A stretch of DNA of 32,273 nucleotides from Candidatus Bathyarchaeia archaeon (GTDB lineage Archaea > Thermoproteota > Bathyarchaeia > Bathyarchaeales > Bathycorpusculaceae): NCBI GenBank assembly GCA_050012755.1, contig JBEKGO010000038.1, forward strand, positions 1 through 32,273, read 5' to 3'. A model generated the notes under the pieces. The model was given only the letters and a program-made list of their open reading frames with translations. It did not search any database and was not told where the DNA came from. Shown piece after piece: positions 17,006 through 31,468 of this stretch. Position 1 is the first letter of the stretch. Every line of letters begins with the position of its first letter. Both the position numbers and the translations under genes were made by a program.

Positions 17006-19552
17006 TTAGAATTTTACGCGTTTGTAAAAAATTCTTTTTACGACTTCACCTGAGACTAAATAGAGAACTACGATTGCGACCATTACAATAACGACCGAAA
17101 GAGGGACTGACGTAAATCCGAAAAGCCGTCCGAGCAAAGTGAAAGGCAAAATAACTGTGGCACCAACAATCAATAAGGTAGTCAGTAGAAGGTATTTTCC
17201 TGGGACACTTTTAAAGAATGGTCCTCTGCTTCGAATAACGAGCACAATTAGACTTGCTGAAATGACCGATTCTATGAACCAGCCGGTTCTAAAAAGGGTC
17301 ATTGGGCTCTTAAAAACAAAGATTAGTACTCCGAAGGCGAGATAGTCAAACACCGAACTTAAAATGCCGAAAACTATCATGAAATTGCGAATGAAGCCAA
17401 CGTTCCAGCGGCGTGGATGTTCAACCATTTCATTATCCACATTGTCTGTGCCAATTGTCGTCTCTGGAAAATCTGTCATCAAATTGGTAAGCAAAATTTG
17501 CCTAGGAAGCAGTGGTAGAAAAGACAGAAAGAGAGATGCGCCTGCCATGCTAAACATATTTCCGAAATTTGCACTTGTTGCCATAAACACGTACTTTAGA
17601 GTGTTGGCAAAAGTTTTCCTTCCTTCTTTCACGCCATTTGCAAGCACACCTAGATCCTGTTCAAGCAAGACAATATCGGCAGCTTCTTTGGCAACATCTA
17701 CTGCGCTTTCGACCGAGATACCGACATCTGCTGCATGAAGAGCAGAGGCATCGTTGATTCCATCACCCATGTACCCCACCACATTCCCGGATTTCTTAAG
17801 CGCGAGAATAATCCTTTCCTTCTGGTTTGGTTCAACCTCAGCAAAAACGTCAACCTCATTTACTTGCTTAAGCAACGCCTCATCACTCAGGGCACGAAGA
17901 TCTGAACCCGCTAGTACTCTTGGATTGGGAAACCCAACTTGTTGACTAATGCTCGCTGCAACAAGTCGGTTGTCTCCCGTAACAATTTTCAGTGAAATCC
18001 CAAGACGCTTTAACTCGCCAATCGTCTCGGCGATTTTAGGCTTACTAGGATCGAAGAGAACCAGAAAACCCAAGAAAGTCATTCCCACCTCACTATCTTT
18101 CGAGATGACTTTTTCAGATCCGAGGTCTTTGTAAGCAATTCCCAGAACGCGAAAACCCTTGCTGCTGAACTCTTCAAAGCGTTGCTGGATCTGCTGTTGT
18201 ACACCGCTGATTTGCACTGCGGTTCCTTCTGAAGTTTCAACTGAACCGCAAACATCAAGGACGTTTTGCAACGCGCCTTTGGTCACCATCAGATTTTTAT
18301 TGTCCTTTGATACCAGGACGCTGAGGCGTTTGCGGATAAAATCGTAAGGCACCTCGTCCAGTTTTTGGTAACCCGACAAATCAAGTTTGTTTGCCCGAAT
18401 CGCTTCATCGATCGGGTTTGTGAATCCTGTTTGGTAAAAAGCGTTGAGGTACGCGTAAAGCAGGGCTTTTCCGCTTTGGTTACCGTTGAAATCAACGACG
18501 GACTGTATTTTTATCGCGCCTTCGGTGAGAGTGCCGGTCTTATCCGAGCATAGAACGTTCATGCTGCCGAAGTTCTCAATTGATGCAAGTCGTTTAACAA
18601 TCACTTTTTGGGTTGCCATGATCTTGGCTCCTTGGGCGAGGTTAATGCTGATGATAGCGGGCAGAAGCTGTGGGGTCAGTCCAACAGCGAGTGCCAAAGA
18701 GAAAAGAAGTGATTCCAATACTGAACGCGCGAAATACACGTTTATGGCAAAGGTCACGACGACCAGTACAAGTGTTACTTCCATAAGGAGATACCCGAAA
18801 TGCCGGACTCCATGTTCAAATTCTGTTTCAGGTGGTCTAAGTTTTAATCGCTCTGAGACTTTGCCGAACTCCGTTTTTGAACCTGTTCCTACAACAATGG
18901 CCTGTGCGCTGCCGCTAACTACATTAGTTCCCATGAAAAGACTGTTTGTCCGCTGACTAAGTGATGTCTCTGGCGGAAGAACTCCTGCGGTTTTCTCTGC
19001 CGGGTAGGTTTCTCCTGTCAAAGATGCTTCGTTTACGAAGAGATCTTTTGATTCCAGAACTATGGAATCTCCTGGGATCAGGTCTCCAGCGTTGAGGATT
19101 ATGACATCTCCCGGTACAATCTTTTCAACTGGAATGTCCGTTTGATTTCCGTCTCGAAGAACGGTCGCTTTTGTCTGCACTATTGCAAGTAGCTTTTGGA
19201 TGGCATTGGCTGCTCCTCTTTCCTGCCAGAATCCAAGAAGGCTGCTTATCAGTATGATCGTTACGATAATTATTGCATTCGTGGGCAGAGCACCCTGTGA
19301 AATATCGAGGTATAATGACAAGCCAGCTGCAAAGATGAGAATAATGATGAGTGGACTCTTGAACTGAGTTAACAGGAGCGTGAGCGTGTCTGATCTTTTC
19401 TTGGGCGTTAGAAGATTGGAGCCGTATTTCGTGAGTCTCTTTTCAGCTTCGTCACTAGTCAAACCTTTCGATGTCGTCCGGAGTTGTTGAAGAGCCTCAG
19501 AAGTGGGGATACTCCAGAATGACTGATTGTCTTGGATATTTTGGCTGCCCAG
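17006..19552 (-). CDS. mgtA: Magnesium-translocating P-type ATPase (P3B)
   Basis: DKTGTLT, TGET, GLTPQLLP, DEVPYDF.RKRLSV, GDGIND and SANFGNMFS motifs. The frame extends upstream of 19462 through FWSIP..EALQQL.T...GLT; probable CTG start at 19552. Confidence 0.93.
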   Translation of the reverse strand: MGSQNIQDNQSFWSIPTSEALQQLRTTSKGLTSDEAEKRLTKYGSNLLTPKKRSDTLTLLLTQFKSPLIIILIFAAGLSLYLDISQGALPTNAIIIVTIILISSLLGFWQERGAANAIQKLLAIVQTKATVLRDGNQTDIPVEKIVPGDVIILNAGDLIPGDSIVLESKDLFVNEASLTGETYPAEKTAGVLPPETSLSQRTNSLFMGTNVVSGSAQAIVVGTGSKTEFGKVSERLKLRPPETEFEHGVRHFGYLLMEVTLVLVVVTFAINVYFARSVLESLLFSLALAVGLTPQLLPAIISINLAQGAKIMATQKVIVKRLASIENFGSMNVLCSDKTGTLTEGAIKIQSVVDFNGNQSGKALLYAYLNAFYQTGFTNPIDEAIRANKLDLSGYQKLDEVPYDFIRKRLSVLVSKDNKNLMVTKGALQNVLDVCGSVETSEGTAVQISGVQQQIQQRFEEFSSKGFRVLGIAYKDLGSEKVISKDSEVGMTFLGFLVLFDPSKPKIAETIGELKRLGISLKIVTGDNRLVAASISQQVGFPNPRVLAGSDLRALSDEALLKQVNEVDVFAEVEPNQKERIILALKKSGNVVGYMGDGINDASALHAADVGISVESAVDVAKEAADIVLLEQDLGVLANGVKEGRKTFANTLKYVFMATSANFGNMFSMAGASLFLSFLPLLPRQILLTNLMTDFPETTIGTDNVDNEMVEHPRRWNVGFIRNFMIVFGILSSVFDYLAFGVLIFVFKSPMTLFRTGWFIESVISASLIVLVIRSRGPFFKSVPGKYLLLTTLLIVGATVILPFTLLGRLFGFTSVPLSVVIVMVAIVVLYLVSGEVVKRIFYKRVKF

Positions 19553-21042: not shown

Positions 21043-21351
21043 TTAGGACTTTATTTCTCTGTCTTCTTTGTAGTCTCTGTCTTCGTGGACTTCCTCTTCT
21101 TCTTCGTCTTCGGTTTCTTCTTCAGCCTCGTTTGCTTCTTCGCCTTCAGCTGCTGCTTTGTCTTCAGCTTCTCCTTTTGGCGGATAAGTCTTGTCCAACC
21201 AGACTTCAAACTGTCTTTTGCTGTCTGAGACTGAAAAAGCCCATTCACATAATCCGCTGATAACTTTGCTGATGTCTATTTCGTGGTCGTCTGTTAACTG
21301 TTTTAAATACTCTTCCCAATTTGCAGGTAACGACACAGAAAAACTACCCAT
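21043..21351 (-). CDS. Putative ribbon-helix-helix protein with an acidic C-terminal tail
   Basis: SFSVSLP..W.EYL..L.......ISKVI..L matches the RHH pattern; poly-Glu tail. Confidence 0.65.
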   Translation of the reverse strand: MGSFSVSLPANWEEYLKQLTDDHEIDISKVISGLCEWAFSVSDSKRQFEVWLDKTYPPKGEAEDKAAAEGEEANEAEEETEDEEEEEVHEDRDYKEDREIKS

Positions 21352-21875: not shown

Positions 21876-22019
21876 TTACTCTTTTTTGTTGATCCATGTT
21901 TTTACAGCTTCTTGGACTGCTCGGGATAAGTCGCCTTTTTTGCCCCCGAATTTTTCTACTGTTTTTAATCTTAGCTGTTTTTCTAGCTCATTTGAGATAT
22001 CAACGTTTATGCGACCCAT
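21876..22019 (-). CDS. Ribbon-helix-helix (CopG/Arc-like) DNA-binding protein (47 aa)
   Basis: MGRINVDISNELEKQLRLKTVEKFGGKKGDLSRAVQEAVKTWINKKE: alternating beta strand, helix, then LS.AV.EAV..W. Confidence 0.82.
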   Translation of the reverse strand: MGRINVDISNELEKQLRLKTVEKFGGKKGDLSRAVQEAVKTWINKKE

Positions 22020-22136
22020 TTTAATCACTTGATGTTATTGATGCTGTGTGTGTGATATATTTTCAAAATGATCGAATCGCCACTTTCTAAATTTGGCGCT
22101 TGTTTTCGTCATTTTTTAAACCTTTATTCACTTATT

Positions 22137-22178
22137 CACATATAGCTATAAGTGCATACATGCTTATAAGTATATGTG
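22137..22178. promoter_or_regulatory. AT-rich inverted repeat upstream of the RHH gene
   Basis: cacatatagctataag ... cttataagtatatgtg; arms match at 14 of 16 positions. Confidence 0.5.
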
Positions 22179-22270
22179 TTTAAGTGCTGAAGAATTTAGG
22201 TGAAGTAAAAAATTTCCGATCAAAAAACAAGCAAAAAAGCAACCTAAATCAAAGAAAAAAATCACTCTCG

Positions 22271-22408
22271 GGACGTTTAGGGACGCAAGGAGACGCAACT
22301 AGACGGGCAGAGTCGCATAGAGTCGCAGGGAGACGCGTAGAGCCGCAGCCTGCAAAGAAATAAAGCTTTCAAGCAGAAAAGCAACTTGAACCACAAAGAA
22401 CAAAAAAT
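22271..22408 (+). repeat. Dispersed element copy A: 8 x 10-bp (AGACGC-type) array plus conserved core
   Basis: ggacgtttag/ggacgcaagg/agacgcaact/agacgggcag/agtcgcatag/agtcgcaggg/agacgcgtag/agccgcagcc, then the core. Confidence 0.8.
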
Positions 22409-22415
22409 GGGGAAG

Positions 22416-22556
22416 GGTTTCCTTAGGTTTCCACAGGTGTACGTGCTTTTCCTTCTGTGTACTTGCTTGTACTCTGGTGTACTTCTATGTACGCAGCCAG
22501 CAAACGAATTAAAACCTAAATCAAAAAAGAAGCTCAAAACAACTTGAACAAAAATT
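22416..22556 (+). repeat. Dispersed element copy B: 8 x 10-bp (GGTTTCC to TGTAC) array plus conserved core
   Basis: ggtttcctta/ggtttccaca/ggtgtacgtg/cttttccttc/tgtgtacttg/cttgtactct/ggtgtacttc/tatgtacgca, then gccagcaaacgaattaaaacc... Confidence 0.78.
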
Positions 22557-22677
22557 CGCCACAACCGTTGTTTCTTGGCCGATTATGAGTGGGATCGCAT
22601 GTGATGTCTCTTGTCTTCCCTCTTTGAATTGTTCTAAAAATTAGCATTAAATATTACACAGTTAACTTAGCTACTGT

Positions 22678-23157
22678 ATGGTGAAGATAACTCGAACGTT
22701 TGTTTTCGTTACCGCTTCTTTAGTTATCGTTGCCATTCTAATCTCCACTGTCTTTTTTGCAGATCAAACACACCCAGCTGGAACACCACCCGTTTACTCC
22801 ATAGTTAATGGGGACTTCACAGTTGACGCAGAATCTTACGAAGCCTTCAACTTCACAACACCTACAGATATCTCCCAAATCCAGGTGAACGGAGATTTTA
22901 GCGTTTTGGGAGCAAATCCATATGGAATTCGTGTTTTCATCTGGGATACTGTCAGCTTCACTAACTTTCAAAGTGGGCACGTCTCGCAGTCCCCATTAGG
23001 ACAGGCTATAAGCGCCTATGATAGCGGACTCACGACCAACGGCACAATTGAAGCATCGCCATATCCGGGCGGCATGTACTTTCTTATCTACCAGAACAAC
23101 TCAACTGAGCCGCAGAATGTAACTTCGCAAGCTTCTTTCTGGTACATCCAAAAATAA
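22678..23157 (+). CDS. Membrane-anchored or secreted beta-rich hypothetical protein
   Basis: N-terminal TM/signal segment; several N-x-S/T sequons. Confidence 0.8.
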   Translation: MVKITRTFVFVTASLVIVAILISTVFFADQTHPAGTPPVYSIVNGDFTVDAESYEAFNFTTPTDISQIQVNGDFSVLGANPYGIRVFIWDTVSFTNFQSGHVSQSPLGQAISAYDSGLTTNGTIEASPYPGGMYFLIYQNNSTEPQNVTSQASFWYIQK

Positions 23158-23246
23158 GTAATAGTGAAGTCTTGAACCTGAATAGTGCTCTTGATTTCTG
23201 CTTCATAAATGATAAATCATTTTCGTACTGACATATTCAGTTTGTA

Positions 23247-23426
23247 ATGGATAATAATTCGGAAATTCCCTGCTCTTTCTGCAAGAATTATGATTCAAAA
23301 GCAAGAAGTTTCTCTTGTAACCCCGATGAATGCCGAAAGCTTTCTGAGTGGCTTTTTGACCACGCTCATATAGAGCCTAAGGAAACCAAGTGGGTTAAGC
23401 TACTGCCAATTCAATATGTAGTTTAA
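23247..23426 (+). CDS. Small Cys-rich protein (59 aa)
   Basis: MDNNSEIPCSFCKNYDSKARSFSCNPDECRKLSEWL...; C-x2-C-x11-C-x4-C. Confidence 0.65.
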   Translation: MDNNSEIPCSFCKNYDSKARSFSCNPDECRKLSEWLFDHAHIEPKETKWVKLLPIQYVV

Positions 23427-23908
23427 AAATTTCCGAGAATCGCTTCATTTTTTCCATTGAGGGTGGATTAACTTTTAGTCCCCAAACCCAAACGACTACG
23501 CCTCTTATACTCTCTCTACTTTCCCACTCCCCCGCTCCCTCGACAGACAAATAAAGGCAGACCCAACTAAAGAAAATTGAAAGGCTGAGTTGAGCGGAAT
23601 ATATCCGTGCGTTGTCTTTTCCCGAGAATGGTTAAAAGGTTTACTGGGTCCAAGTTCACATATTTTAAATGTGACTACTTTCGATTTTATGTGGACACTT
23701 GTGGCAACATTTAGTCGCTAATAATTACCTCTTTTCTCAAGGTTAAGTTAACTAACATTGACAAGTCTGAGCACAGAATTTTTGGTCAAATCTAATTATG
23801 GCTTAATTTGGGCAGCAATTGGGGTAATAGTTTAAAGATAAAGAAGGTTTTTCCAAAGAAAACAGGAGGTTAATAGTAACGCCCATCCCATTTTATAGGA
23901 CTATTAAA

Positions 23909-24835
23909 ATGGCGCGTAAGCAAGGCTTTGAAAAGACAGTTTCCATAATCATCGCAATATTACTCAAGAATCTTCTTCTGCGTCTGAGATACTTGCCTAA
24001 AAATGGCGCCATTGTAGAAGTCAACAACTCCAAAATGCTTCTCTTTCCCAAAAATGGAGCTATTCACTTGGACTTGTTTTTGCATAAGAAAAGAGAGTTT
24101 ACCTGCACTGATTATTTGATGAGCAACGGCATTATCAAGGAGGGCGATGTTGTCTTAGATATTGGTGCCAACATCGGTTACTACGTTTTAATCGAGTCTC
24201 AACTTGCGGGAGCAAACGGAAGAGTCTACGCAGTTGAACCCGTTCAAAGCAACATTGATTTACTGAAAAAGAACGTGCATCTAAATAATTTAAAAAACGT
24301 AGCTATTTTTCAACTAGCAATTGGAGAGTGCAACGAAGAATCCGAGATTTATGTTTCCAGCTTTTCTAATTTATGTTCCATGGATAAAAATTCCGTCGGA
24401 GGTAAAATTATTGGAATACAAAACGTTTCTGAAGAAACAGCAGACACATTCCTCAATAATAAGCCTTCGCCAAATCTAATTCGGATGGACGTCGAAGGTT
24501 ACGAATATAAAATAATTAGAGGTATGCCCCAGACACTTAAAGGAGACGTGCGAATTCTTGTAGAATTGCATCCCACCTATCTCTCTGAAGAAAAATTGGT
24601 TGAAATCTTCACAATCTTGAGGCAAAATAACTTCTGGGTCAGATTTGCAGTCTTTGAACCTAAAGTTGACGAAAGCAAGATTGTTAATTCTCTATTACAA
24701 AAAAGCGAAGCTGTTACGCCTTCGCCTAATTTTGTCATCGAAAATGTCTCCTTGCAAAAACTTCAAAAGGTAATGAAAAGCTACCCAAGTATATCTCCTA
24801 ATGTACTTTTTGAGAAACAAATTGTCAATAGTTAA
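23909..24835 (+). CDS. FkbM-family SAM-dependent methyltransferase
   Basis: VLDIGANIGYY, VYAVEP and IRMDVEGYE motifs. Confidence 0.93.
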   Translation: MARKQGFEKTVSIIIAILLKNLLLRLRYLPKNGAIVEVNNSKMLLFPKNGAIHLDLFLHKKREFTCTDYLMSNGIIKEGDVVLDIGANIGYYVLIESQLAGANGRVYAVEPVQSNIDLLKKNVHLNNLKNVAIFQLAIGECNEESEIYVSSFSNLCSMDKNSVGGKIIGIQNVSEETADTFLNNKPSPNLIRMDVEGYEYKIIRGMPQTLKGDVRILVELHPTYLSEEKLVEIFTILRQNNFWVRFAVFEPKVDESKIVNSLLQKSEAVTPSPNFVIENVSLQKLQKVMKSYPSISPNVLFEKQIVNS

Positions 24836-24870
24836 CTTCATAGAAGCTGTTGTTAGCAGCGCAGCACTCT

Positions 24871-24984
24871 TCCTGAACTTTTTTGGACTTATTTAGACTT
24901 TTTTGGACTTTTTCCGACTCAACCTACAAACAAACCAAACCCCAAAACAAAGAAGCAAACCAAAACACAAACAACAAAATAGCT
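24871..24984 (+). repeat. Dispersed element copy C: 5 x 10-bp (TTTTGGACTT) array plus conserved core
   Basis: tcctgaactt/ttttggactt/atttagactt/ttttggactt/tttccgactc, then aacctacaaacaaaccaaacccc... Confidence 0.82.
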
Positions 24985-25023
24985 TGGTGCTCATAAAAGC
25001 CTTTTAAAGCGTTCAACGTAATC

Positions 25024-25518
25024 TTGATTCGTATGTCTATGCCCATGTTTCTTTCGATGGCTGTGCTGGCTCCTCCTATGCCTTACGGTTATCTTTGGGA
25101 GATATTTTTTGCTGCTATTCTTGTGGTTAGTTGGGTGTTGGCGGTTAAGTTTCTGTCTTTTGGAAGAAGATGGATAGTCATCCTATTTGTAGTCGGAATT
25201 GGGGAGATGGTCTTCTCGGCTAACACACGTGGATACAGCAGTTTAGTAGGTGGTTTAGTTATTGGTCTCGTCACTGCATACAGTGGGTTTATTATTCCTG
25301 CTTTATACATGGCAAAACTGCCTCTTCGCAAAAAACAAACAAAAATAGCTGTTATCTTATCCGGTTGCCTCGAACTGATATTTGGTTATGTCGGTATAGT
25401 TACCGCATTTAATTTTGGTGTCGATCCCTTCTTACTGTATTTTGGTTTGCTCACAATCGGTTTCTACTCTTTAATCGTCGGTGCTGCAAGCCTTTTCTTC
25501 ACCAAAACCAAGATTTAG
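25024..25518 (+). CDS. Hypothetical integral membrane protein
   Basis: About 5 TM segments; start uncertain (25024, 25033 or 25039). Confidence 0.7.
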   Translation: MIRMSMPMFLSMAVLAPPMPYGYLWEIFFAAILVVSWVLAVKFLSFGRRWIVILFVVGIGEMVFSANTRGYSSLVGGLVIGLVTAYSGFIIPALYMAKLPLRKKQTKIAVILSGCLELIFGYVGIVTAFNFGVDPFLLYFGLLTIGFYSLIVGAASLFFTKTKI

Positions 25519-25670
25519 AAATCACTTAAACATTTCATTAATTTAGAGAATTAGGTTGGTTATCTGGTTATAATTTGGGTAAGATTTGAGTGCAAATCTG
25601 GAATATCGATTAATAATCTCTCCCCTTAGAAGAAGTGAGAACTCAAAAACAAAGAAGGGAGGTTTGAAGA

Positions 25671-25913
25671 ATGAAGCAAATACAGGTATATAGTTTGGAT
25701 TTGACCAAAATGGATGGAAGCGGAGACTTCTCGTGTCCAAGATGTGGAAATGCGATATCTCCTGATGACTGTACCGAAAAGGCTTATTCCATTCTAGAAG
25801 CAAAGGTCAGTGATCGGGGTTTGGAGGAAATAATGATTCGCTGCAACAAGTGCGAAAGTGAACTCCATTTGACTGGTTTTTCTCTTTTACAAAAACTGGA
25901 CGAGAACTCTTAA
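25671..25913 (+). CDS. Zinc-ribbon protein
   Basis: GDFSCPRCG..ISPDD and CNKC.S motifs; GGAGGT SD. Confidence 0.85.
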   Translation: MKQIQVYSLDLTKMDGSGDFSCPRCGNAISPDDCTEKAYSILEAKVSDRGLEEIMIRCNKCESELHLTGFSLLQKLDENS

Positions 25914-26117
25914 GTCATCAAAGGAGGCAGAAAATAATGCAGCAATCTCTGCAAAAGAATAGAAGCAAAAAACCAAAAAAATCTAACTGGGAATGCCCTG
26001 AAAAGAAGAATGTGTCTTCAGGATCTTACGTTGACCACATCTAAATAAACTCAATGAGACAAATTTTAGAGGAAAATAGTTAAATACTAACTTCATAAAA
26101 GTTAATTTTGGTATAGA

Positions 26118-26924
26118 ATGGACTTTTTGAATCAAACTGTAACTTTCAAGTGTTTTGATGGCGCTGATTTGACAACTTATGTTGCCGCTCCTAAACCTGA
26201 AGGCCGACACCCCGCAATTATTATTGTGCACGAAGCTTGGGGACTTAACGAGCAGATTAGAGGTGTGGCGAACATGTATGCTGAACAAGGCTTCGTCGGT
26301 ATAGCTCCTCATCTTTTCAGCCGAGACAAAGATCTAACCGAACAAGCGATCGAGAAAGCTATGATGCGCATGTGGCAAATTCCCCCTGAAAAACGTAATG
26401 ACCCAGCTGCAGTGCAGAGCCTAATGGAGAGCCTGTCAGAAAACGAGCGAAAGATAATGAACTTTTTCTTCACAGGGCGAGAAAATGCCGAAAAAGCAAT
26501 GAGACAGGACATTCTTAGCTGTGTAAACTATGCTAAAACCTTGGAAGCGGTAGATGGAGAAAGGCTTGGAATCACAGGTTTTTGTTTAGGTGGCGGATTA
26601 ACTTACCAGCTTGCAACCGAATACCCATTCAATGCAGCTGCTCCTTTTTATGGCGCAAACCCCAAACCACTTGAAGCTGTCGCAAAAATCAAATGCCCAG
26701 TGTTTGGAATTTATGCAGGTGAGGATCTAAGAATAACCAGCGGAGTTCCAGCCTTAGTTGAGAGCATGATTTCTCACAAGAAAACGTTTCAAATGAAAAT
26801 CTACCAAGGAACACAGCACGCCTTCTTCAACGAAAAAAGACCATCGTACAATAAAGACGCCGCGGAAGATGCATGGACCATGACTTTAGCTTTCTTCAAT
26901 AAGTACCTCAAGGCGAATATATGA
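26118..26924 (+). CDS. Dienelactone hydrolase family protein
   Basis: HEAWGLN, GFCLGG nucleophile elbow, D and HAFFN. Confidence 0.93.
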   Translation: MDFLNQTVTFKCFDGADLTTYVAAPKPEGRHPAIIIVHEAWGLNEQIRGVANMYAEQGFVGIAPHLFSRDKDLTEQAIEKAMMRMWQIPPEKRNDPAAVQSLMESLSENERKIMNFFFTGRENAEKAMRQDILSCVNYAKTLEAVDGERLGITGFCLGGGLTYQLATEYPFNAAAPFYGANPKPLEAVAKIKCPVFGIYAGEDLRITSGVPALVESMISHKKTFQMKIYQGTQHAFFNEKRPSYNKDAAEDAWTMTLAFFNKYLKANI

Positions 26925-27115
26925 GCGAAACCAAAAACCAAAACGAGTCAAGTCTACTTTGGGACTGCTTCACTAATTGGTCGTTAACACTGGAAAAAAC
27001 CGAAAAACAAGAAATGCCCAAATAGTTTGTGCCGAAAGGTTAAATTGCACCTGTAAACTGGCTATTAATGTTCATTGTAGCGAAGAAATTTTAGGAACGT
27101 TAACTAAATGGTGAG

Positions 27116-27625
27116 ATGGTGAAGTGTATGTCTTTGTTTGATGTGATTCTAAGCCGTAGGAGTATTCGAAGCTATGAAAATAAAGAAATACCCCAAGAAA
27201 TCTTACGCCAAGTTCTCGAAGCTGGCAGGCAAGCACCATCCGCAGCTAACAGACAGCCGATTCGATTTGTAGTAGTGACAGATTCCGAAGCTAAAAATGA
27301 ATTATCCAAAAGTTTGTTTGGTAAACATATTAAGAATGCGCCTATGGTTATCGTTGGATGCGCAGATGAAGAATCGATTTTAACTGGAAAATGGGCAGTT
27401 GTTGATACTACAATTGCCCTTCAAAACATAGTTCTTGCCGCTTGGACCTTTGGTATAGGTACATGTTGGATAGGGTCTTTTAGTGAAGAAAAAGTCAAAA
27501 AACTCTTTGAAATTCCAGACAAGTGGAAAGTTGTTGCATTATTAACCCTTGGCTATCCTGCGGAGCAGCCGAAAGCAAAAAACAGAAAGCCCTTTGAGGA
27601 ATTGTTTAGCTTCAACAAGTTCTAA
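27116..27625 (+). CDS. Nitroreductase family protein
   Basis: RRSIRSY, APSAANRQP, GIGTCWIG and LGYP motifs. Confidence 0.93.
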   Translation: MVKCMSLFDVILSRRSIRSYENKEIPQEILRQVLEAGRQAPSAANRQPIRFVVVTDSEAKNELSKSLFGKHIKNAPMVIVGCADEESILTGKWAVVDTTIALQNIVLAAWTFGIGTCWIGSFSEEKVKKLFEIPDKWKVVALLTLGYPAEQPKAKNRKPFEELFSFNKF

Positions 27626-27666
27626 TATCAAGCGCATTAAAAAAGGAAAGTGCGAGTGACATCTTC

Positions 27667-27702
27667 ACGGTGTCGGGGGATCAAATCTTCCCGATCCGTT
27701 TT
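27667..27702. terminator. Hairpin plus T-run between convergent genes
   Basis: acgg..tcgggggat-caa-atcttcccga.ccgt followed by tttt. Confidence 0.4.
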
Positions 27703-27741
27703 TGGAGCTAAAATTTGCATGGAAATCTTTCAATTCTTGGC

Positions 27742-28713
27742 TTAGCCTTTGACGACTGGGCTGCCGTTTTTGTAGGAGCATTGAATTCCGTATTTCTTGA
27801 CACATGCAAGACAAAGCACGGGGTCGCATAGATTTGTACTTAGATATTTTTCTCCTCCATCAGGCGCTATAGCCACCAAAACGCCCTCTGAGAGTTCTTT
27901 TGCCTTCTGCATAGCGATATGGAAAATCGCGCCAGAGCTGGGTCCAACAAACAGAGCTTCCTGCAGCGCCAAAAGCCTAGCTGCCTCATCTGCAGACTTG
28001 GGATTTACATAATATATTTCGTCGACGAGTTCTTTGTTCCAGATGGCGGGTACGTATTGAGTTTTCAGATCCTTTAAGCCTTGAATTGCTGTGCCTACCT
28101 CGGGTTGAACGGCGATGACTTTCACGTTGGGGTTGTATTCTTTGAGCCTTTTTGAAACTCCCATCAATGTGCCTGTCGTGCCAATTCCACCAAAGAAATG
28201 GGTGATCTGCCCGTTTGTATCTCGCCAGATTTCCTCGCCCGTGGTCTCGTAATGAGCTAAGACATTTGCTTGGTTGGCGAATTGGTTGGGCATAAAGTAA
28301 TTTTCTGGGTTTTTGTCAACTAATTCGTGGGCTAAATCTTCTGCCCCATTCATGCCCTTAGCTCCATCGCTCAACACGATTTTAGCACCCAGCGATATGA
28401 GAATTTGACGCCTCTCCAGTGTCATCGTCTCAGGCATAACCAAGACAAGATCATAACCCTTCGCGCGACAAACCAGGGCCAATCCTATGCCTGTGTTTCC
28501 GCTGGTTGGTTCAATTACGGTTTTGGCACTGGTGAGCTGCCCTGATTTTTCTGCTTGCTCAATCATGTACTTGGCAATCCGATCTTTAACGGACCCTCCT
28601 GGATTGCACTTTTCCAGCTTGACAAACATCTTTACTCTATGGTTGGGACTTAGACTGCGGATTTCGACCAACGGAGTGTTACCGATAAGCTCAAGCACAG
28701 TTTTAGAATTCAT
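27742..28713 (-). CDS. cysM: PLP-dependent cysteine synthase (CysK/CysM family)
   Basis: IGNTPLV, NPGGSVKDR, EPTSGNTG, GIGTTGT, GPSSG and D.GEKYLS motifs. Confidence 0.9.
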   Translation of the reverse strand: MNSKTVLELIGNTPLVEIRSLSPNHRVKMFVKLEKCNPGGSVKDRIAKYMIEQAEKSGQLTSAKTVIEPTSGNTGIGLALVCRAKGYDLVLVMPETMTLERRQILISLGAKIVLSDGAKGMNGAEDLAHELVDKNPENYFMPNQFANQANVLAHYETTGEEIWRDTNGQITHFFGGIGTTGTLMGVSKRLKEYNPNVKVIAVQPEVGTAIQGLKDLKTQYVPAIWNKELVDEIYYVNPKSADEAARLLALQEALFVGPSSGAIFHIAMQKAKELSEGVLVAIAPDGGEKYLSTNLCDPVLCLACVKKYGIQCSYKNGSPVVKG

Positions 28714-28773
28714 GTAAACCCATCACGAAACATGTAGCTAGTTTAATAAGATTCTAATAAATAATGTGACGAC

Positions 28774-29205
28774 CTACTCCACTCGAAAAACGAATCTGTA
28801 GCGGTCTTTTCCAACCCTTTTAACCTTAAGAATTTCAAAATAGCCGACCTCGCCTGTGTTTTCGACATGCGGATCCTTGCATGGAGTTTTGTCAAACCCC
28901 TCGATCTCCACAATTCTAACCTTTTCTATTGAAGAAGGCAATCTTGTCAGATCAAATTCTTTTTGTGCATCTTCCCTATTCATAATATGCTTGCTTACTC
29001 GAAGGTTCTTCTTTATCACTGAGTTGACGTCATTCTGCAGCGCTGTTCTGTCAATCTTCCTTAAATCCTCTTTGGTGGCAATTTCCATCCTTCCAAAGTT
29101 CTCTTCAAACTTGGCGATGATGAATTTTGCATCGGGAAGCTTGCTCTCCAACGTTCTTGAGAGAATGTGTTCGGCGGTTTGAAGTCTGCCTTCGATTGGC
29201 TTCAT
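28774..29205 (-). CDS. Stand-alone AlaX-like tRNA editing domain protein
   Basis: RLQTAEHIL (HxxxH variant), VRIVEIEGFD and PCKDPHV.NTGEVG (CxxxH). Confidence 0.8.
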   Translation of the reverse strand: MKPIEGRLQTAEHILSRTLESKLPDAKFIIAKFEENFGRMEIATKEDLRKIDRTALQNDVNSVIKKNLRVSKHIMNREDAQKEFDLTRLPSSIEKVRIVEIEGFDKTPCKDPHVENTGEVGYFEILKVKRVGKDRYRFVFRVE

Positions 29206-29312
29206 AAGATTTTGTTGATATCAATTTCTATTTAAGAATTGGGTCAAAACCTAAACGAGTTTACAATGATGAACTGTCTTTATATTTTTATTAAGCTAAT
29301 AATATCAAGCAT

Positions 29313-30443
29313 ATGCTTAAGTCAACAAAAAGAGCTTTAACTCTCTTGTTTTTGCTCTTAACTCCTATTATAACAGCCAACTTGACGCGAGTTAATGCTG
29401 AATTTGCAACAGATCAATCTGGCATGATTAACGGAGTATTAGCCCACGAGATGACCTCTCAAGAAGCTCAAACTTTAGCAAAGTCCAATATCACTTGGGT
29501 AAGCTGTGACGTAACATCGAATCCCTCTGACGACTGTGAATGGGATCAGATCTATTCTTTGGCAAAGCAATACAATCTGTCTTTACTAGGCATTCTCGAT
29601 TGGCATCTCATGAATTATAGTCAAACTTTTCAACTAAGCGATTGGAGTAACGCTGTGAATCAGGCAATAAACGAGTTTGGCGATGTAGTTAAGACTTGGG
29701 AGATATGGAATGAACCAAATTTTGCGTGGAATTCCTACGGATTTTATAATGGAACAGCACAACAATATGTAACTCTCATGCAAACAGCCTATGACAACAT
29801 AAAATCGGCAGCCCCTAATGATACCGTCATAGGTTTAGGCGGAGTACCATTATTTACGGGTGCAGAACCCACTATTGCTAACACGTATGCTTCACAAGCC
29901 TTTGTCTGGGCGCAAAGCGTGGTACAATTGGGTGGAATGAAATATTGTGACGCTATAGCTGTACATGCCTATCCTTATGGCGCTTACAATCAAATAAGCC
30001 AGCTCGCATTCGAGTATTTCCTTCAAAATTACCAACAATTGTGTCAAGGCAAACCCATCTGGGTTACAGAAGTGGGACAAGAATCTTTCAGCACCAACTG
30101 GGCGGCTACAGAAACTCAGCAATCTGCGTTCTTAAACCAAAGCTATTCTCTGCTTCAAGGTTTAGGTGTTAAAGCTTACATATGGTATGAGCTTAACGAT
30201 AATTATACAGATAGACCAGACTCTAACTTTGGTCTTTTTGATAATAGCGGAAACCAAAAGGATGCGTTTAGCGTATTTGCGAATTTGGCTTCTCCGAGTT
30301 TATCCCCGACGCCTGTGCCCTCAACTGCCCCAGAATTATCATTTGGGCTGGTTCTTGCTCTAATTATTGTGATATTGTTTTGCACAATTCTGATAAGAAA
30401 ATGGGGAAACCCTAAATTGAAAAAGACAATCCAAAATAGCTAG
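29313..30443 (+). CDS. Secreted clan GH-A glycoside hydrolase with a C-terminal membrane anchor
   Basis: Signal peptide; WEIWNEP acid/base, VHAY and WVTEVG nucleophile; Pro/Ser/Thr linker, then PE-TM-basic tail. Confidence 0.88.
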   Translation: MLKSTKRALTLLFLLLTPIITANLTRVNAEFATDQSGMINGVLAHEMTSQEAQTLAKSNITWVSCDVTSNPSDDCEWDQIYSLAKQYNLSLLGILDWHLMNYSQTFQLSDWSNAVNQAINEFGDVVKTWEIWNEPNFAWNSYGFYNGTAQQYVTLMQTAYDNIKSAAPNDTVIGLGGVPLFTGAEPTIANTYASQAFVWAQSVVQLGGMKYCDAIAVHAYPYGAYNQISQLAFEYFLQNYQQLCQGKPIWVTEVGQESFSTNWAATETQQSAFLNQSYSLLQGLGVKAYIWYELNDNYTDRPDSNFGLFDNSGNQKDAFSVFANLASPSLSPTPVPSTAPELSFGLVLALIIVILFCTILIRKWGNPKLKKTIQNS

Positions 30444-30500
30444 TTCAAATATTTTGCGCTGAAAATGCTTCCGACCTTTATCTTTCGAGTCATAATCCTA

Positions 30501-30622
30501 AATGCCTAATTTTGTCAAATAATGTCAATTTATGTCAAATAGTGTCAAAAAATGTATCAACCCGTAACCAATTCAAACCCTGAACCAAAAAAGCAAACCG
30601 AAACATAAAGAACAAAATGGCT
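30501..30622 (+). repeat. Dispersed element copy D: about 5-6 x 10-bp (TGTCAA) array plus conserved core
   Basis: tttgtcaaat/aatgtcaatt/tatgtcaaat/agtgtcaaaa/aatgtatcaa, then cccgtaaccaattcaaaccc... Confidence 0.82.
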
Positions 30623-30650
30623 GGAAAGACCAAAATATCGAGTCTCTCTA

Positions 30651-30776
30651 TCTTCACTTTCTTCTCTTTTCCTCACTTTTTGTCACTTTTCTTCACTTTA
30701 TTTCACTTTTTTCACTCAACCAGCAAACAAACCAAACCCCACACCAAAAAGCAACCCAAAACAAACCGCAAAAATC
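30651..30776 (+). repeat. Dispersed element copy E: about 7 x 10-bp (TCACTTTT) array plus conserved core
   Basis: cttctctttt/cctcactttt/tgtcactttt/cttcacttta/tttcactttt/ttcact, then caaccagcaaacaaaccaaacccc... Confidence 0.82.
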
Positions 30777-30844
30777 TACAACAGAAACTCGTCAACAACT
30801 TCACACAGAATTAAGAAACTAAATGAGGAATGAATAGCCATTAG

Positions 30845-31468
30845 CTACCGTTTAACCACGTTGCCGTAGAAATTCTCTATAATTCTGTAACCATCAAGTT
30901 GTGATTCTCCCTGCACGTTGATGCGTTCGGGATGAAACTGCACTCCGTAAAATGGGTTTCGTCTATGTTTAACTGCCTCTACTTCACAAGATTCAGAATC
31001 CGCAAGCAGATCAAACCCAGCATCCTTTAGGCTTTCTTTCAAAACATAATCATAATGCGATTCAGCAAGGGTGGCGGTCTGGCTCTTTGTAAAACCTGCA
31101 AATAAGTCGTCAGCCTCAACTATGCGGACACTCTCAAACCTATCGAGGACTGACTGATTAAGTGTCTCTACTTTTGCTCCAAATGTCCAACAGAGCAGTT
31201 GATGACCAAAGCAGATGCCGAAAATGGGTACGTAACAGGTTTTTATTAGATTAATCGTTGCTTGAAACAATTCTCTATCAGAAGAACTCACAATTCTTGC
31301 TGCAGATCCGCTTAAGACGACGGCGTCTACATTCTTATCAACTTGGAATTCGCTTTGGATATTTCCAAACGGAACAACTTTGCATTCGCTGAATTTGCCA
31401 ACTGCCTTAAGCAAAGCCTCATTTTGGGTAGCTTTAAGTGAACAGTTTACAATCAATGTTTTGGACAT
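30845..31468 (-). CDS. Class I glutamine amidotransferase (GMP synthase subunit A-like)
   Basis: VVLSGS, GICFGHQ, ESHYD and GVQFHPE triad motifs. Confidence 0.9.
   Translation of the reverse strand: MSKTLIVNCSLKATQNEALLKAVGKFSECKVVPFGNIQSEFQVDKNVDAVVLSGSAARIVSSSDRELFQATINLIKTCYVPIFGICFGHQLLCWTFGAKVETLNQSVLDRFESVRIVEADDLFAGFTKSQTATLAESHYDYVLKESLKDAGFDLLADSESCEVEAVKHRRNPFYGVQFHPERINVQGESQLDGYRIIENFYGNVVKR

Follow-up and report, generated by a model that had tools for sequence, protein, structure and literature searches.

The window analyzed here is the whole stretch of 32,273 nucleotides of contig JBEKGO010000038.1 from a Candidatus Bathyarchaeia archaeon. Three intergenic loci in this 32-kb window hold five copies of a repeated element, with its A/C-rich strand on the + strand in all of them. 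Each copy consists of a conserved core of about 60 bp and, abutting it on the 5' side, an array of units with a 10-bp period; we refer to the two together as a cassette or module. The feature is real and lineage-wide: the five repeats belong to a large bathyarchaeial family of intergenic cassettes, part of which is linked to a gene for a protein of about 92 aa, and we tentatively read the arrays as operators for such proteins. The arrays and cores of the window are as follows, with array positions counted from the first core base.

22266..22345, + strand: array 1, eight 10-bp units of the GACG/GTCG class, in register with core 1, with C at -2-10n in eight consecutive units.
22346..22405, + strand: core 1, pattern match (family nhmmer 32.2 bits, E 3.9e-8).
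22414..22493, + strand: array 2, eight units of the GTAC class, an 11-member class that includes the loci L006, L031, and L033.
22494..22553, + strand: core 2, pattern match, in tandem with core 1 (family nhmmer 28.9 bits).
24870..24919, + strand: array 3, five units of the GGACT/AGACT class with phased T runs, a 20-member class.
24920..24979, + strand: core 3, pattern match, a solo cassette between two + strand genes.
30498..30557, + strand: array 4, six units of the TGTCA class, the core-proximal unit being GTAT instead, a 13-member class.
30558..30617, + strand: core 4, pattern match (family nhmmer 30.8 bits).
30651..30716, + strand: array 5, about 6.8 units of the TCACT class (Tandem Repeats Finder (TRF) period 10, score 76), with a 1-nt register slip before the core.
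30717..30773, + strand: core 5, pattern match, in tandem with core 4, with a 1-nt deletion.
22229..22253, + strand: possible degenerate sixth core to the left of array 1, a weak match (nhmmer E 0.09-0.43).

The first-pass annotation, made from the sequence alone, had described five same-strand cores of roughly this size, each directly preceded by a 10-bp-period array, and this description was borne out by TRF, by shuffled sequences, and by leave-one-out nhmmer searches. A degenerate pattern built from the five copies matched the window exactly five times, on one strand, and gave no match in 100 dinucleotide shuffles. The five cores can be aligned with a single 1-nt gap, at pairwise identities of 55-78%. 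Each left-out core was the next best match of the profile built from the others, with E values of 8.9e-4, 8e-5, 5.4e-3, 2.3e-7, and 0.079 for copies 1 to 5; four of the five lie below 0.01, and copy 5 is weak. Period 10 was found directly 5' of all five cores and, in the whole 32-kb window, all period-10 rows of TRF have this position (22282-22348, 22416-22492, 24877-24919, 30513-30555, and 30651-30716). Similarly, four window segments, all at arrays, reach a lag-10 identity of at least 33/50, and none does so at lags 8, 9, 11, or 12; local-composition shuffles never reached 33 (0/200, maximum 31). Since lag 10 alone is enriched, the arrays are direct repeats of 4-5-bp boxes spaced by about one helical turn, as in operators of the MraZ/AbrB type. 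The units share a C in register with the core, found in the trinucleotides GAC, TAC, GAC, GTC, and CAC of copies 1 to 5, respectively. It runs through 8, 8, 5, and 5 consecutive units in copies 1 to 4 and is shifted by the 1-nt slip in copy 5. In addition, runs of four to six T are in phase in arrays 3 and 5.

Scanning genome contigs with a core pattern (21 fixed and three two-fold positions, two variable gaps) yielded at least 108 loci, numbered here with the prefix L. All counts of modules, cores, and metagenome-assembled genomes (MAGs) given below for the family are those among the matches listed, and are lower bounds biased by the pattern. The core is present in at least 105 loci from at least 29 MAGs titled Candidatus Bathyarchaeota or Bathyarchaeia, so that the search in relatives proposed in the first-pass annotation was positive, and the arrays are in register across 112 modules. 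A hidden Markov model (HMM) of the family detects at least 133 cores in the listed loci; core 3 of the window falls below its threshold because of composition bias. Single MAGs hold at least 14 and at least 11 loci. Two matches, L018 and L025, are off-target and lack an array. The contig of L069 is titled Candidatus Acidoferrum, but its module and flanking gene are almost the same as in the Bathyarchaeota locus L068, and it is probably mis-binned. Our literature searches found no published description of the cassette.

Aligning the 112 modules on the first core base revealed how the arrays are built. C is found at -2, -12, and -22 in 92, 91, and 86% of the modules, and at -32, -42, -52, and -62 in 74, 73, 66, and 56%; A is found at -3 in 72% and G at -4 in 53%. 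The units start with a T-rich part (positions -10 to -8; T in 51-73% at unit positions 1-3), and the core-proximal unit is the most A/T-rich, with 97% A/T at -8. The resulting consensus, TTTWWRGACK, places one (G)AC, preceded by an A/T-rich half, in every helical turn. The number of units per array has a median of 8 (range 0-19), and units agree with the consensus of their own array at 79%. Single linkage of the unit consensuses of 92 modules gave about 24 classes, and four of the window modules belong to the four largest. The pentamer had been reported to differ in every copy. This is true among the five window copies but not beyond the window, where four of their five box classes recur in other genomes. 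Arrays that had been called copy-specific, with a sequence that is not kept, are instead class-specific and have (G)AC in register every 10 bp in common. The pentamers of the first-pass annotation are therefore class-specific variants around an invariant, phased C.

The core is A/C-rich on one strand, unstructured, about 60 bp long, and bounded by sharp conserved edges. Its strongest blocks are CAACCTGCAAAC (positions 1-12, array side) and, in the middle, the AAGCAACCCAAAACA block, and it is also conserved outside the positions fixed by the pattern. Several smaller groups of modules have additional features. An inverted repeat of 11-13 nt, absent from other modules, is present in L011, L045, L059, L063, L071, L105, and L107. 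Its arms are GAAGAAGAAGA, which precedes a short array, and TCTTCTTCTTC, which follows the core at a distance of about 12-15 nt; in this subgroup they could pair into a stem that encloses the entire module. Another conserved motif, around CACCAAAATTAGAGACAGAGCA, is found about 40-70 nt after the core in L042, L043, L047, L062, L064, and L087, which come from different MAGs. tRNA sequences occur near some modules: Rfam identifies one at L053:1775-1850, and L044, L087, and L089 have, judged by eye only, the reverse complement of a tRNA 3' end about 110-150 nt after the core.

Neighboring modules are co-oriented in 29/29 pairs, the window pairs included, with 27/29 spaced by 53-382 nt, and the members of a tandem have different array classes. 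The orientation of the flanking genes shows no such preference. Among flanking ORFs (open reading frames) of at least 100 aa, 72 on each side, 33 downstream ones are co-oriented and 39 convergent, and upstream the numbers are 42 and 30. The window copies likewise lie in divergent (22.0-22.7 kb), tandem (24.8-25.0 kb), and convergent (30.4-30.8 kb) gene contexts, as had been claimed. With 39/72 downstream neighbors convergent, we rejected the core as the promoter or 5' untranslated region of the downstream protein gene; the glycosidase ortholog of L055 moreover keeps its own TATA between the module and the start codon. The annotated genes around the window copies include:

17006-19462, - strand: P-type ATPase (Pfam).
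21879..22028, - strand: small ribbon-helix-helix (RHH) gene (Pfam RHH_6, E 1.2e-7), facing away from the first module cluster.
23909-24835, + strand: FkbM methyltransferase (Pfam).
26118-26924, + strand: dienelactone hydrolase (Pfam).
29313-30443, + strand: glycosidase (Pfam).
30845-31468, - strand: glutamine amidotransferase (Pfam).

Pfam also identifies a nitroreductase, a PALP enzyme, and an AlaX-like protein, and the region is thus one of ordinary metabolic genes. The RHH gene occupies the spot where other loci carry the gene for the ~92-aa protein described below. It is at most a possible partner of the cassette, and we rejected it as a recurrent one, as no homolog was found beside any other module in the listed loci. 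Between this gene and the first module cluster lies an imperfect 24-nt inverted repeat (22129-22186; 83% complementary, 10 nt between the arms), which has a z of -3.1 when folded as single-stranded DNA and matches miRNA-precursor models at chance level. It may form a hairpin or serve as an operator for the RHH protein itself. Further upstream, TRF detects a period-18 repeat of 4.5 copies with a CTT/GTC-rich unit (21096-21176), which falls inside a minus-strand ORF (21043-21351; 102 aa, no Pfam family) and whose translation would be an acidic repeat rich in Glu and Asp.

At their core-distal end, many arrays carry the motif TTAACGGCAT, which on the other strand is a gene start encoding Met-Pro-Leu-Thr. 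Clustering of 112 divergent ORFs of at least 40 aa beside modules by all-vs-all blastp gave one recurrent family, with 14 members, the ~92-aa family. Among these 112 ORFs no other recurrent cluster was found besides the L068/L069 orthologs, and Pfam searches of 60 of them revealed no further shared family. The family gene was located by tblastn in 20 loci, in each of which (20/20) it lies next to a core, in divergent orientation. Searching with a DNA profile of the gene gave 27 matches in 26 loci, and 26 of these matches start 44-178 nt from a divergent core. At 26 of the 133 cores, the gene or its 5' remnant sits at the far edge of the array, and at 13 the gene is near-full. Ten remnants all keep the first bases beside the array (profile positions 1-4 onward, ends at 36-166) and are truncated from the far side; one fragment, at L091, does not fit. 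The remaining cassettes, about four fifths and including all five of the window, are solo, that is, without an adjacent gene. In L027, L092/L086, and L014, a conserved spacer of about 100 nt separates tandem modules, about 100-190 nt upstream of the arrays. By eye and from the nhmmer remnants, this spacer resembles a decayed copy of the 92-aa gene, as in L064 and L042.

The cassette is also a source of annotation errors. Public gene calls for the family (P0004, P0025, P0029, P0066, P0076, and others) are often 20-60 aa too long because the gene caller reads through array and core. The N-terminal extension of 21 over-long database homologs is the translated core in 15 cases and the end of the core in four; one further case is in another frame and one has none, so that 20/21 carry translated core sequence. 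As a check, L056:1997-2068:+ translates to the same peptide. These false extensions could be used to harvest further gene-core pairs from protein databases. The window holds a different kind of spurious coding sequence. Two small ORFs start from an ATG at the end of cores 1 and 4 (22408-22547, 46 aa, and 30617-30814, 65 aa, respectively) and read a hydrophobic stretch in the next array followed by a Lys/Thr/Gln-rich one in the next core. They resemble small membrane proteins, yet most probably arise as artifacts of T-rich arrays combined with stop-poor A/C-rich cores. We rejected them as genes because an ATG ORF of at least 40 aa within 150 nt is found in only 34/114 modules, at scattered distances and in frames that differ between close copies, and because the variable core columns, judged by eye in the alignment of the window cores, have no codon periodicity.

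Several lines of evidence place the linked protein in the AbrB superfamily. A profile of 25 members compared with the PDB found 2GLW (PhS018 of Pyrococcus horikoshii, 92 aa) at E 1.5e-4 over residues 8-75, followed weakly by AbrB-family regulators and MraZ. The AlphaFold2 model of the 92-aa protein (predicted local distance difference test 84.2, predicted template modeling (TM) score 0.76) has two beta-beta-alpha-beta halves, and Foldseek again places 2GLW first (TM 0.72, E 2e-5), ahead of MraZ and MraZ-promoter complexes. Both halves carry G-x-R-x-x-[IV]-P, which we take to be the AbrB signature (in L004, GNRVQVPK and DGRITVPK), and one source labels some family members AbrB/PrlF or MraZ. As judged from the model and the profile, the protein is a single-chain AbrB-superfamily barrel of the PhS018 type. 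PhS018 itself is classed with DNA-binding AbrB-like domains and predicted to bind DNA like AbrB-type antitoxins in the part of the source available (PMC4333400).

The explanation that we prefer, with a credence that comes close to even, is that the cassettes are MraZ-like operator arrays for small AbrB-like proteins, combined with a core that would serve as a shared promoter or leader. We infer this from a box at every helical turn, an A/T-rich spacer, and a site directly upstream of the gene for a one-cradle protein, a combination by which the arrays would be read as operators. Each unit of the array would dock one molecule of the 92-aa PhS018-like protein, and the bound molecules would sit side by side along the same face of the helix, in the way MraZ occupies its GTG(G/T) boxes. 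Paralogs would recognize different flavors of the box and thereby account for the recurrent array classes. In the complete cassette the gene begins immediately past the core-distal end of the array and is directed away from the core; the core would be the shared promoter, the first part of the leader, or both, and a bound array would throttle transcription through it, resulting in autoregulation. Solo cassettes could be subject to control in trans, serve as decoys, or represent control modules that were duplicated and placed beside other genes. Helically phased protein-binding arrays had been one of three readings offered from the sequence alone. This one is favored by the universal in-register (G)AC, the linked gene with its AbrB-superfamily fold, and the precedent of MraZ and AbrB, which recognize boxes of 4-5 bp spaced about 10 bp apart (PMC12957436 and PMC3025583). 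The second, an RNA sponge or guide, is without support, and the third, slippage, contributes but is insufficient alone (both are discussed below).

Recognition of the boxes by paralog-specific proteins would fit two observations. The distance between linked proteins correlates with the distance between their array units (Mantel r 0.52, permutation p 2e-4, n=15), in a comparison uncorrected for shared descent, gene and array being inherited together. In addition, one MAG has three intact paralogs beside arrays of three box classes (L035 CACA, L046 GTAC, and L054 GACT/AACT). On the strand of the gene, the core is followed by the array, a Shine-Dalgarno sequence 6-12 nt ahead of the start, and the start codon. 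No TATA is evident in the stretch from the array to the start, and array plus leader come down to 52-57 nt in some loci. A TATA-like element resembling TTTAGAAG is found 21-27 bp beyond the outer edge of the core in 8 of the ~11 gene-linked loci with the sequence visible. Its reverse complement, TTCTAW/CTTCTA, occurs at +15 to +29 beyond the core in 25/111 modules, against at most 2 per 5-nt bin elsewhere. This arrangement suggests that transcription may start at the outer edge of the core and run through core and array into the gene, and such a start would explain the sharp outer boundary of the core.

Several points weigh against the operator reading, in which every functional step is inferred from sequence. 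The TATA-like element beyond the core is present in only about a quarter of the modules, and a promoter in the opposite direction would be equally compatible with the data, with TTTWWA at -10 to -5 and YAA at core positions 17-19, the usual archaeal distance from the TATA-like core-proximal unit. The operator model leaves the strong conservation of the 60-bp core without explanation: the cores can still be aligned by a pattern of 21 fixed positions while the linked proteins fall to 41-53% identity. Solo cores, moreover, are as well conserved as linked ones (median 37.8 vs 40.1 bits, p 0.19), which the model by itself does not explain. Only a minority of the cores have the gene or a remnant of it, and in the window tblastn and nhmmer found no family gene, so that the linkage does not extend to the five window copies. 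With up to 19 units, and with stretches of identical ones as in L030, the arrays go beyond the 3-4 boxes known from MraZ and resemble products of slippage, and shared descent also bears on the Mantel correlation. On the protein side, Pfam gave no family for any member scanned, TIGR01439 of NCBIfam matched 11/25 members below its cut-off (best E 0.017), and PhS018 has no tested function in the available part of the same source (PMC4333400). Finally, all family statistics come from loci found by the core pattern, whose fixed positions are conserved by construction and to which arrays or genes lacking a core are invisible.

A broader form of the operator reading, which we consider doubtful, would make the cassettes a genome-wide regulatory system specific to the Bathyarchaeia and built from portable parts. 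A shared core and an expandable array would be served by many orthogonal AbrB-like proteins, each reading its own flavor of the box. Solo and tandem cassettes would wire arbitrary genes combinatorially, and slippage would tune the occupancy. If true, this would be a natural modular protein-DNA "box code", with many orthogonal pairs per cell.

The rival that survives best, unlikely as we hold it to be, is that each cassette is an independent small non-coding RNA gene. The cassettes would then express sibling RNAs with the core as their common functional part, a seed or protein-binding stretch, and the array as a multi-site platform for an RNA-binding protein. Cassettes that ignore the orientation of flanking genes, lie head-to-tail in every neighboring pair, and keep a core with sharp conserved edges would suit such a gene, as would the conservation of solo cores at the level of gene-linked ones. 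T-rich stretches follow soon after the core in several classes and could be archaeal terminators. However, RNAalifold found no conserved pair on either strand of 50 modules, and z-scores of the minimum free energy are near 0. Searches of Rfam with the window and 20 loci returned nothing at the gathering score except the tRNA elsewhere in L053, and the E-value mode gave chance-level hits only. We accordingly rejected a conserved RNA structure or Rfam family. Pairing of the array with its own downstream flank was no better than mismatched pairing (-14.9 vs -14.1 kcal/mol, p 0.27), and a long-range stem closing the module, confined to the one subgroup, was rejected as well. The proposed sponge or guide thus finds neither conserved pairs, nor an Rfam match, nor complementarity of the array to its own downstream flank. 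Moreover, the sole recurrent neighbor encodes a DNA-binding fold and has the position expected if the cassette were a divergent or upstream operator.

The cassettes are evidently gained, lost, and resized quickly. A module lies upstream of the glycosidase ortholog in L055 (85% nucleotide identity) and of the dienelactone-hydrolase ortholog in L090, and the window has no module at either place. Modules of the same class occur in non-syntenic contexts at about 80-83% identity, the array of L030 consists of 13 identical units, and the ten truncated gene copies, unlike the further fragment at L091, keep the array-side start of the gene. This turnover keeps alive, beside the operator reading, a second rival, in our judgment distinctly improbable, in which the cassette is a non-autonomous element that duplicates or moves, its end at the core being fixed and the opposite one variable. 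The arrays would be by-products of slippage or templated addition and the gene would be cargo, and the two readings could coexist. The double-digit numbers of loci in single MAGs would also be expected from such an element. On the other hand, terminal inverted repeats of at least 11 nt are confined to the one subgroup (~8/112 modules), with a distribution otherwise like that of the control, and no clean filled/empty pair with both flanks homologous was found among the compared loci. Pfam detected no transposase, integrase, or reverse transcriptase among 60 divergent neighbor ORFs, and at 41-53% identity between paralogous linked proteins most copies must be old. Slippage does shape the arrays, as in L030, but neither the fixed register nor the conserved C is explained by it, and slippage alone would not hold (G)AC in register with the core across at least 29 MAGs. 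The fixed core end is in part a matter of ascertainment, all loci having been found by the core.

That the arrays are structural DNA, in which phased A/T tracts would impart curvature or position archaeal histones beside a promoter in the core without a sequence-specific partner, is very improbable: each unit does alternate an A/T-rich and a G/C-containing half with a 10-bp period, and T4-6 runs are in phase in window arrays 3 and 5, but conservation is highest at the single C of (G)AC (up to 92%) and not in the A/T tract, common classes (GACAC-plus-CCC, GACGC-plus-GTAGT) have no A-tract, and neither recurrent discrete box classes nor the link to a DNA-binding gene is predicted.

Known repeat families do not accommodate the cassettes either. 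A clustered regularly interspaced short palindromic repeat (CRISPR) array was rejected, the units being 10 nt and contiguous, compared with repeats of about 23-50 nt with unique spacers of similar size. The first-pass annotation's statement that the architecture fits neither CRISPR, nor repetitive extragenic palindromic (REP) sequences, nor miniature inverted-repeat transposable elements (MITEs) stands, as flanking inverted repeats are found in one subgroup only. Type III toxin-antitoxin loci have repeats of about 34-36 nt upstream of a toxin gene, processed by the ToxN-like endoribonuclease encoded downstream; this candidate was also rejected, with a unit of 10 nt and a downstream protein of AbrB-like fold. 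Plasmid or phage origin was rejected after 22271-22560 of the window gave no match in a plasmid collection and the 92-aa protein none in a phage collection.

To our knowledge, the abundant Bathyarchaeia have hardly been cultured, and next to nothing is known of their gene regulation. The cassettes offer testable regulatory parts (a core, a phased array, and a candidate cognate small protein) in at least 29 MAGs, with many copies per genome, and can serve as a sequence marker of the lineage, besides explaining the false N-terminal extensions described above. If the proteins read the arrays, the orphan PhS018 branch would gain a function and the MraZ mechanism an archaeal counterpart. The system would also provide natural orthogonal repressor-operator pairs, with specificity residues readable from the comparison of paralogs.

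Among known systems, arrays bound by RHH proteins (the ParR/parC iterons and the omega heptads) also consist of many short direct repeats, cooperatively bound by a small dimeric autoregulating protein. They differ from the cassettes in the fold of the protein and in being plasmid-borne and limited to one locus, and we know of no dispersed solo copies or conserved core among them. The intergenic tandem repeats of Borgs and mini-Borgs are archaeal as well, with region-specific units that are not divisible by three and a suspected regulatory role. As far as the accessible part of the source describes them, they are perfect repeats, with no common period or in-register motif, no conserved core, and no linked DNA-binding gene (10.1101/2023.08.02.551345). 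AbrB is closer, since it belongs to the same protein superfamily. The available text reports a preference for TGGNA pentamers joined by 4-5-bp A/T spacers, with an M-5bp-M-4bp-M-5bp-M arrangement selected by SELEX (systematic evolution of ligands by exponential enrichment) and bound in vitro (PMC3025583). Pentamers, A/T-rich spacers, and tandem arrangements are thus common to AbrB/Abh sites, as described there, and to the cassettes. However, AbrB sites are loose, often inverted, and spread over hundreds of unrelated promoters, and they lack long regular arrays, an adjoining conserved core, and paralog-specific classes.

The closest solved relative of the linked protein is PhS018 (PDB 2GLW), which is also a single chain of 92 aa with two AbrB-like halves. 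The closest parallel to the arrays is the operator of MraZ in the bacterial dcw cluster, which has direct GTG(G/T) boxes separated by six spacer nucleotides upstream of its own gene. In the published description of this operator, a single pseudo-dimeric cradle of the AbrB type reads each box, the cradles bind cooperatively, and transcription starts within or next to the boxes, in box 1 (PMC12957436). Both systems have a box per helical turn upstream of the gene of a regulator, and the fold of MraZ is the second-best match of the linked protein after PhS018. In contrast, MraZ has 3-4 boxes at one locus per genome, and the cassettes have 3-19 units with a median of 8, at least 14 loci in one MAG, and mostly no gene. 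The cassette box has a (G)AC core with class-specific flanks, the 60-bp core always abuts the array, the hosts are archaeal, and the linked protein, with its 92 aa, lacks the helical oligomerization parts of MraZ. On this comparison, the working principle of the cassettes is most likely already known, that of phased boxes of the AbrB/MraZ type. What is new is the format, which combines long class-specific arrays, a fixed conserved core, and many mostly solo copies in an archaeal host.

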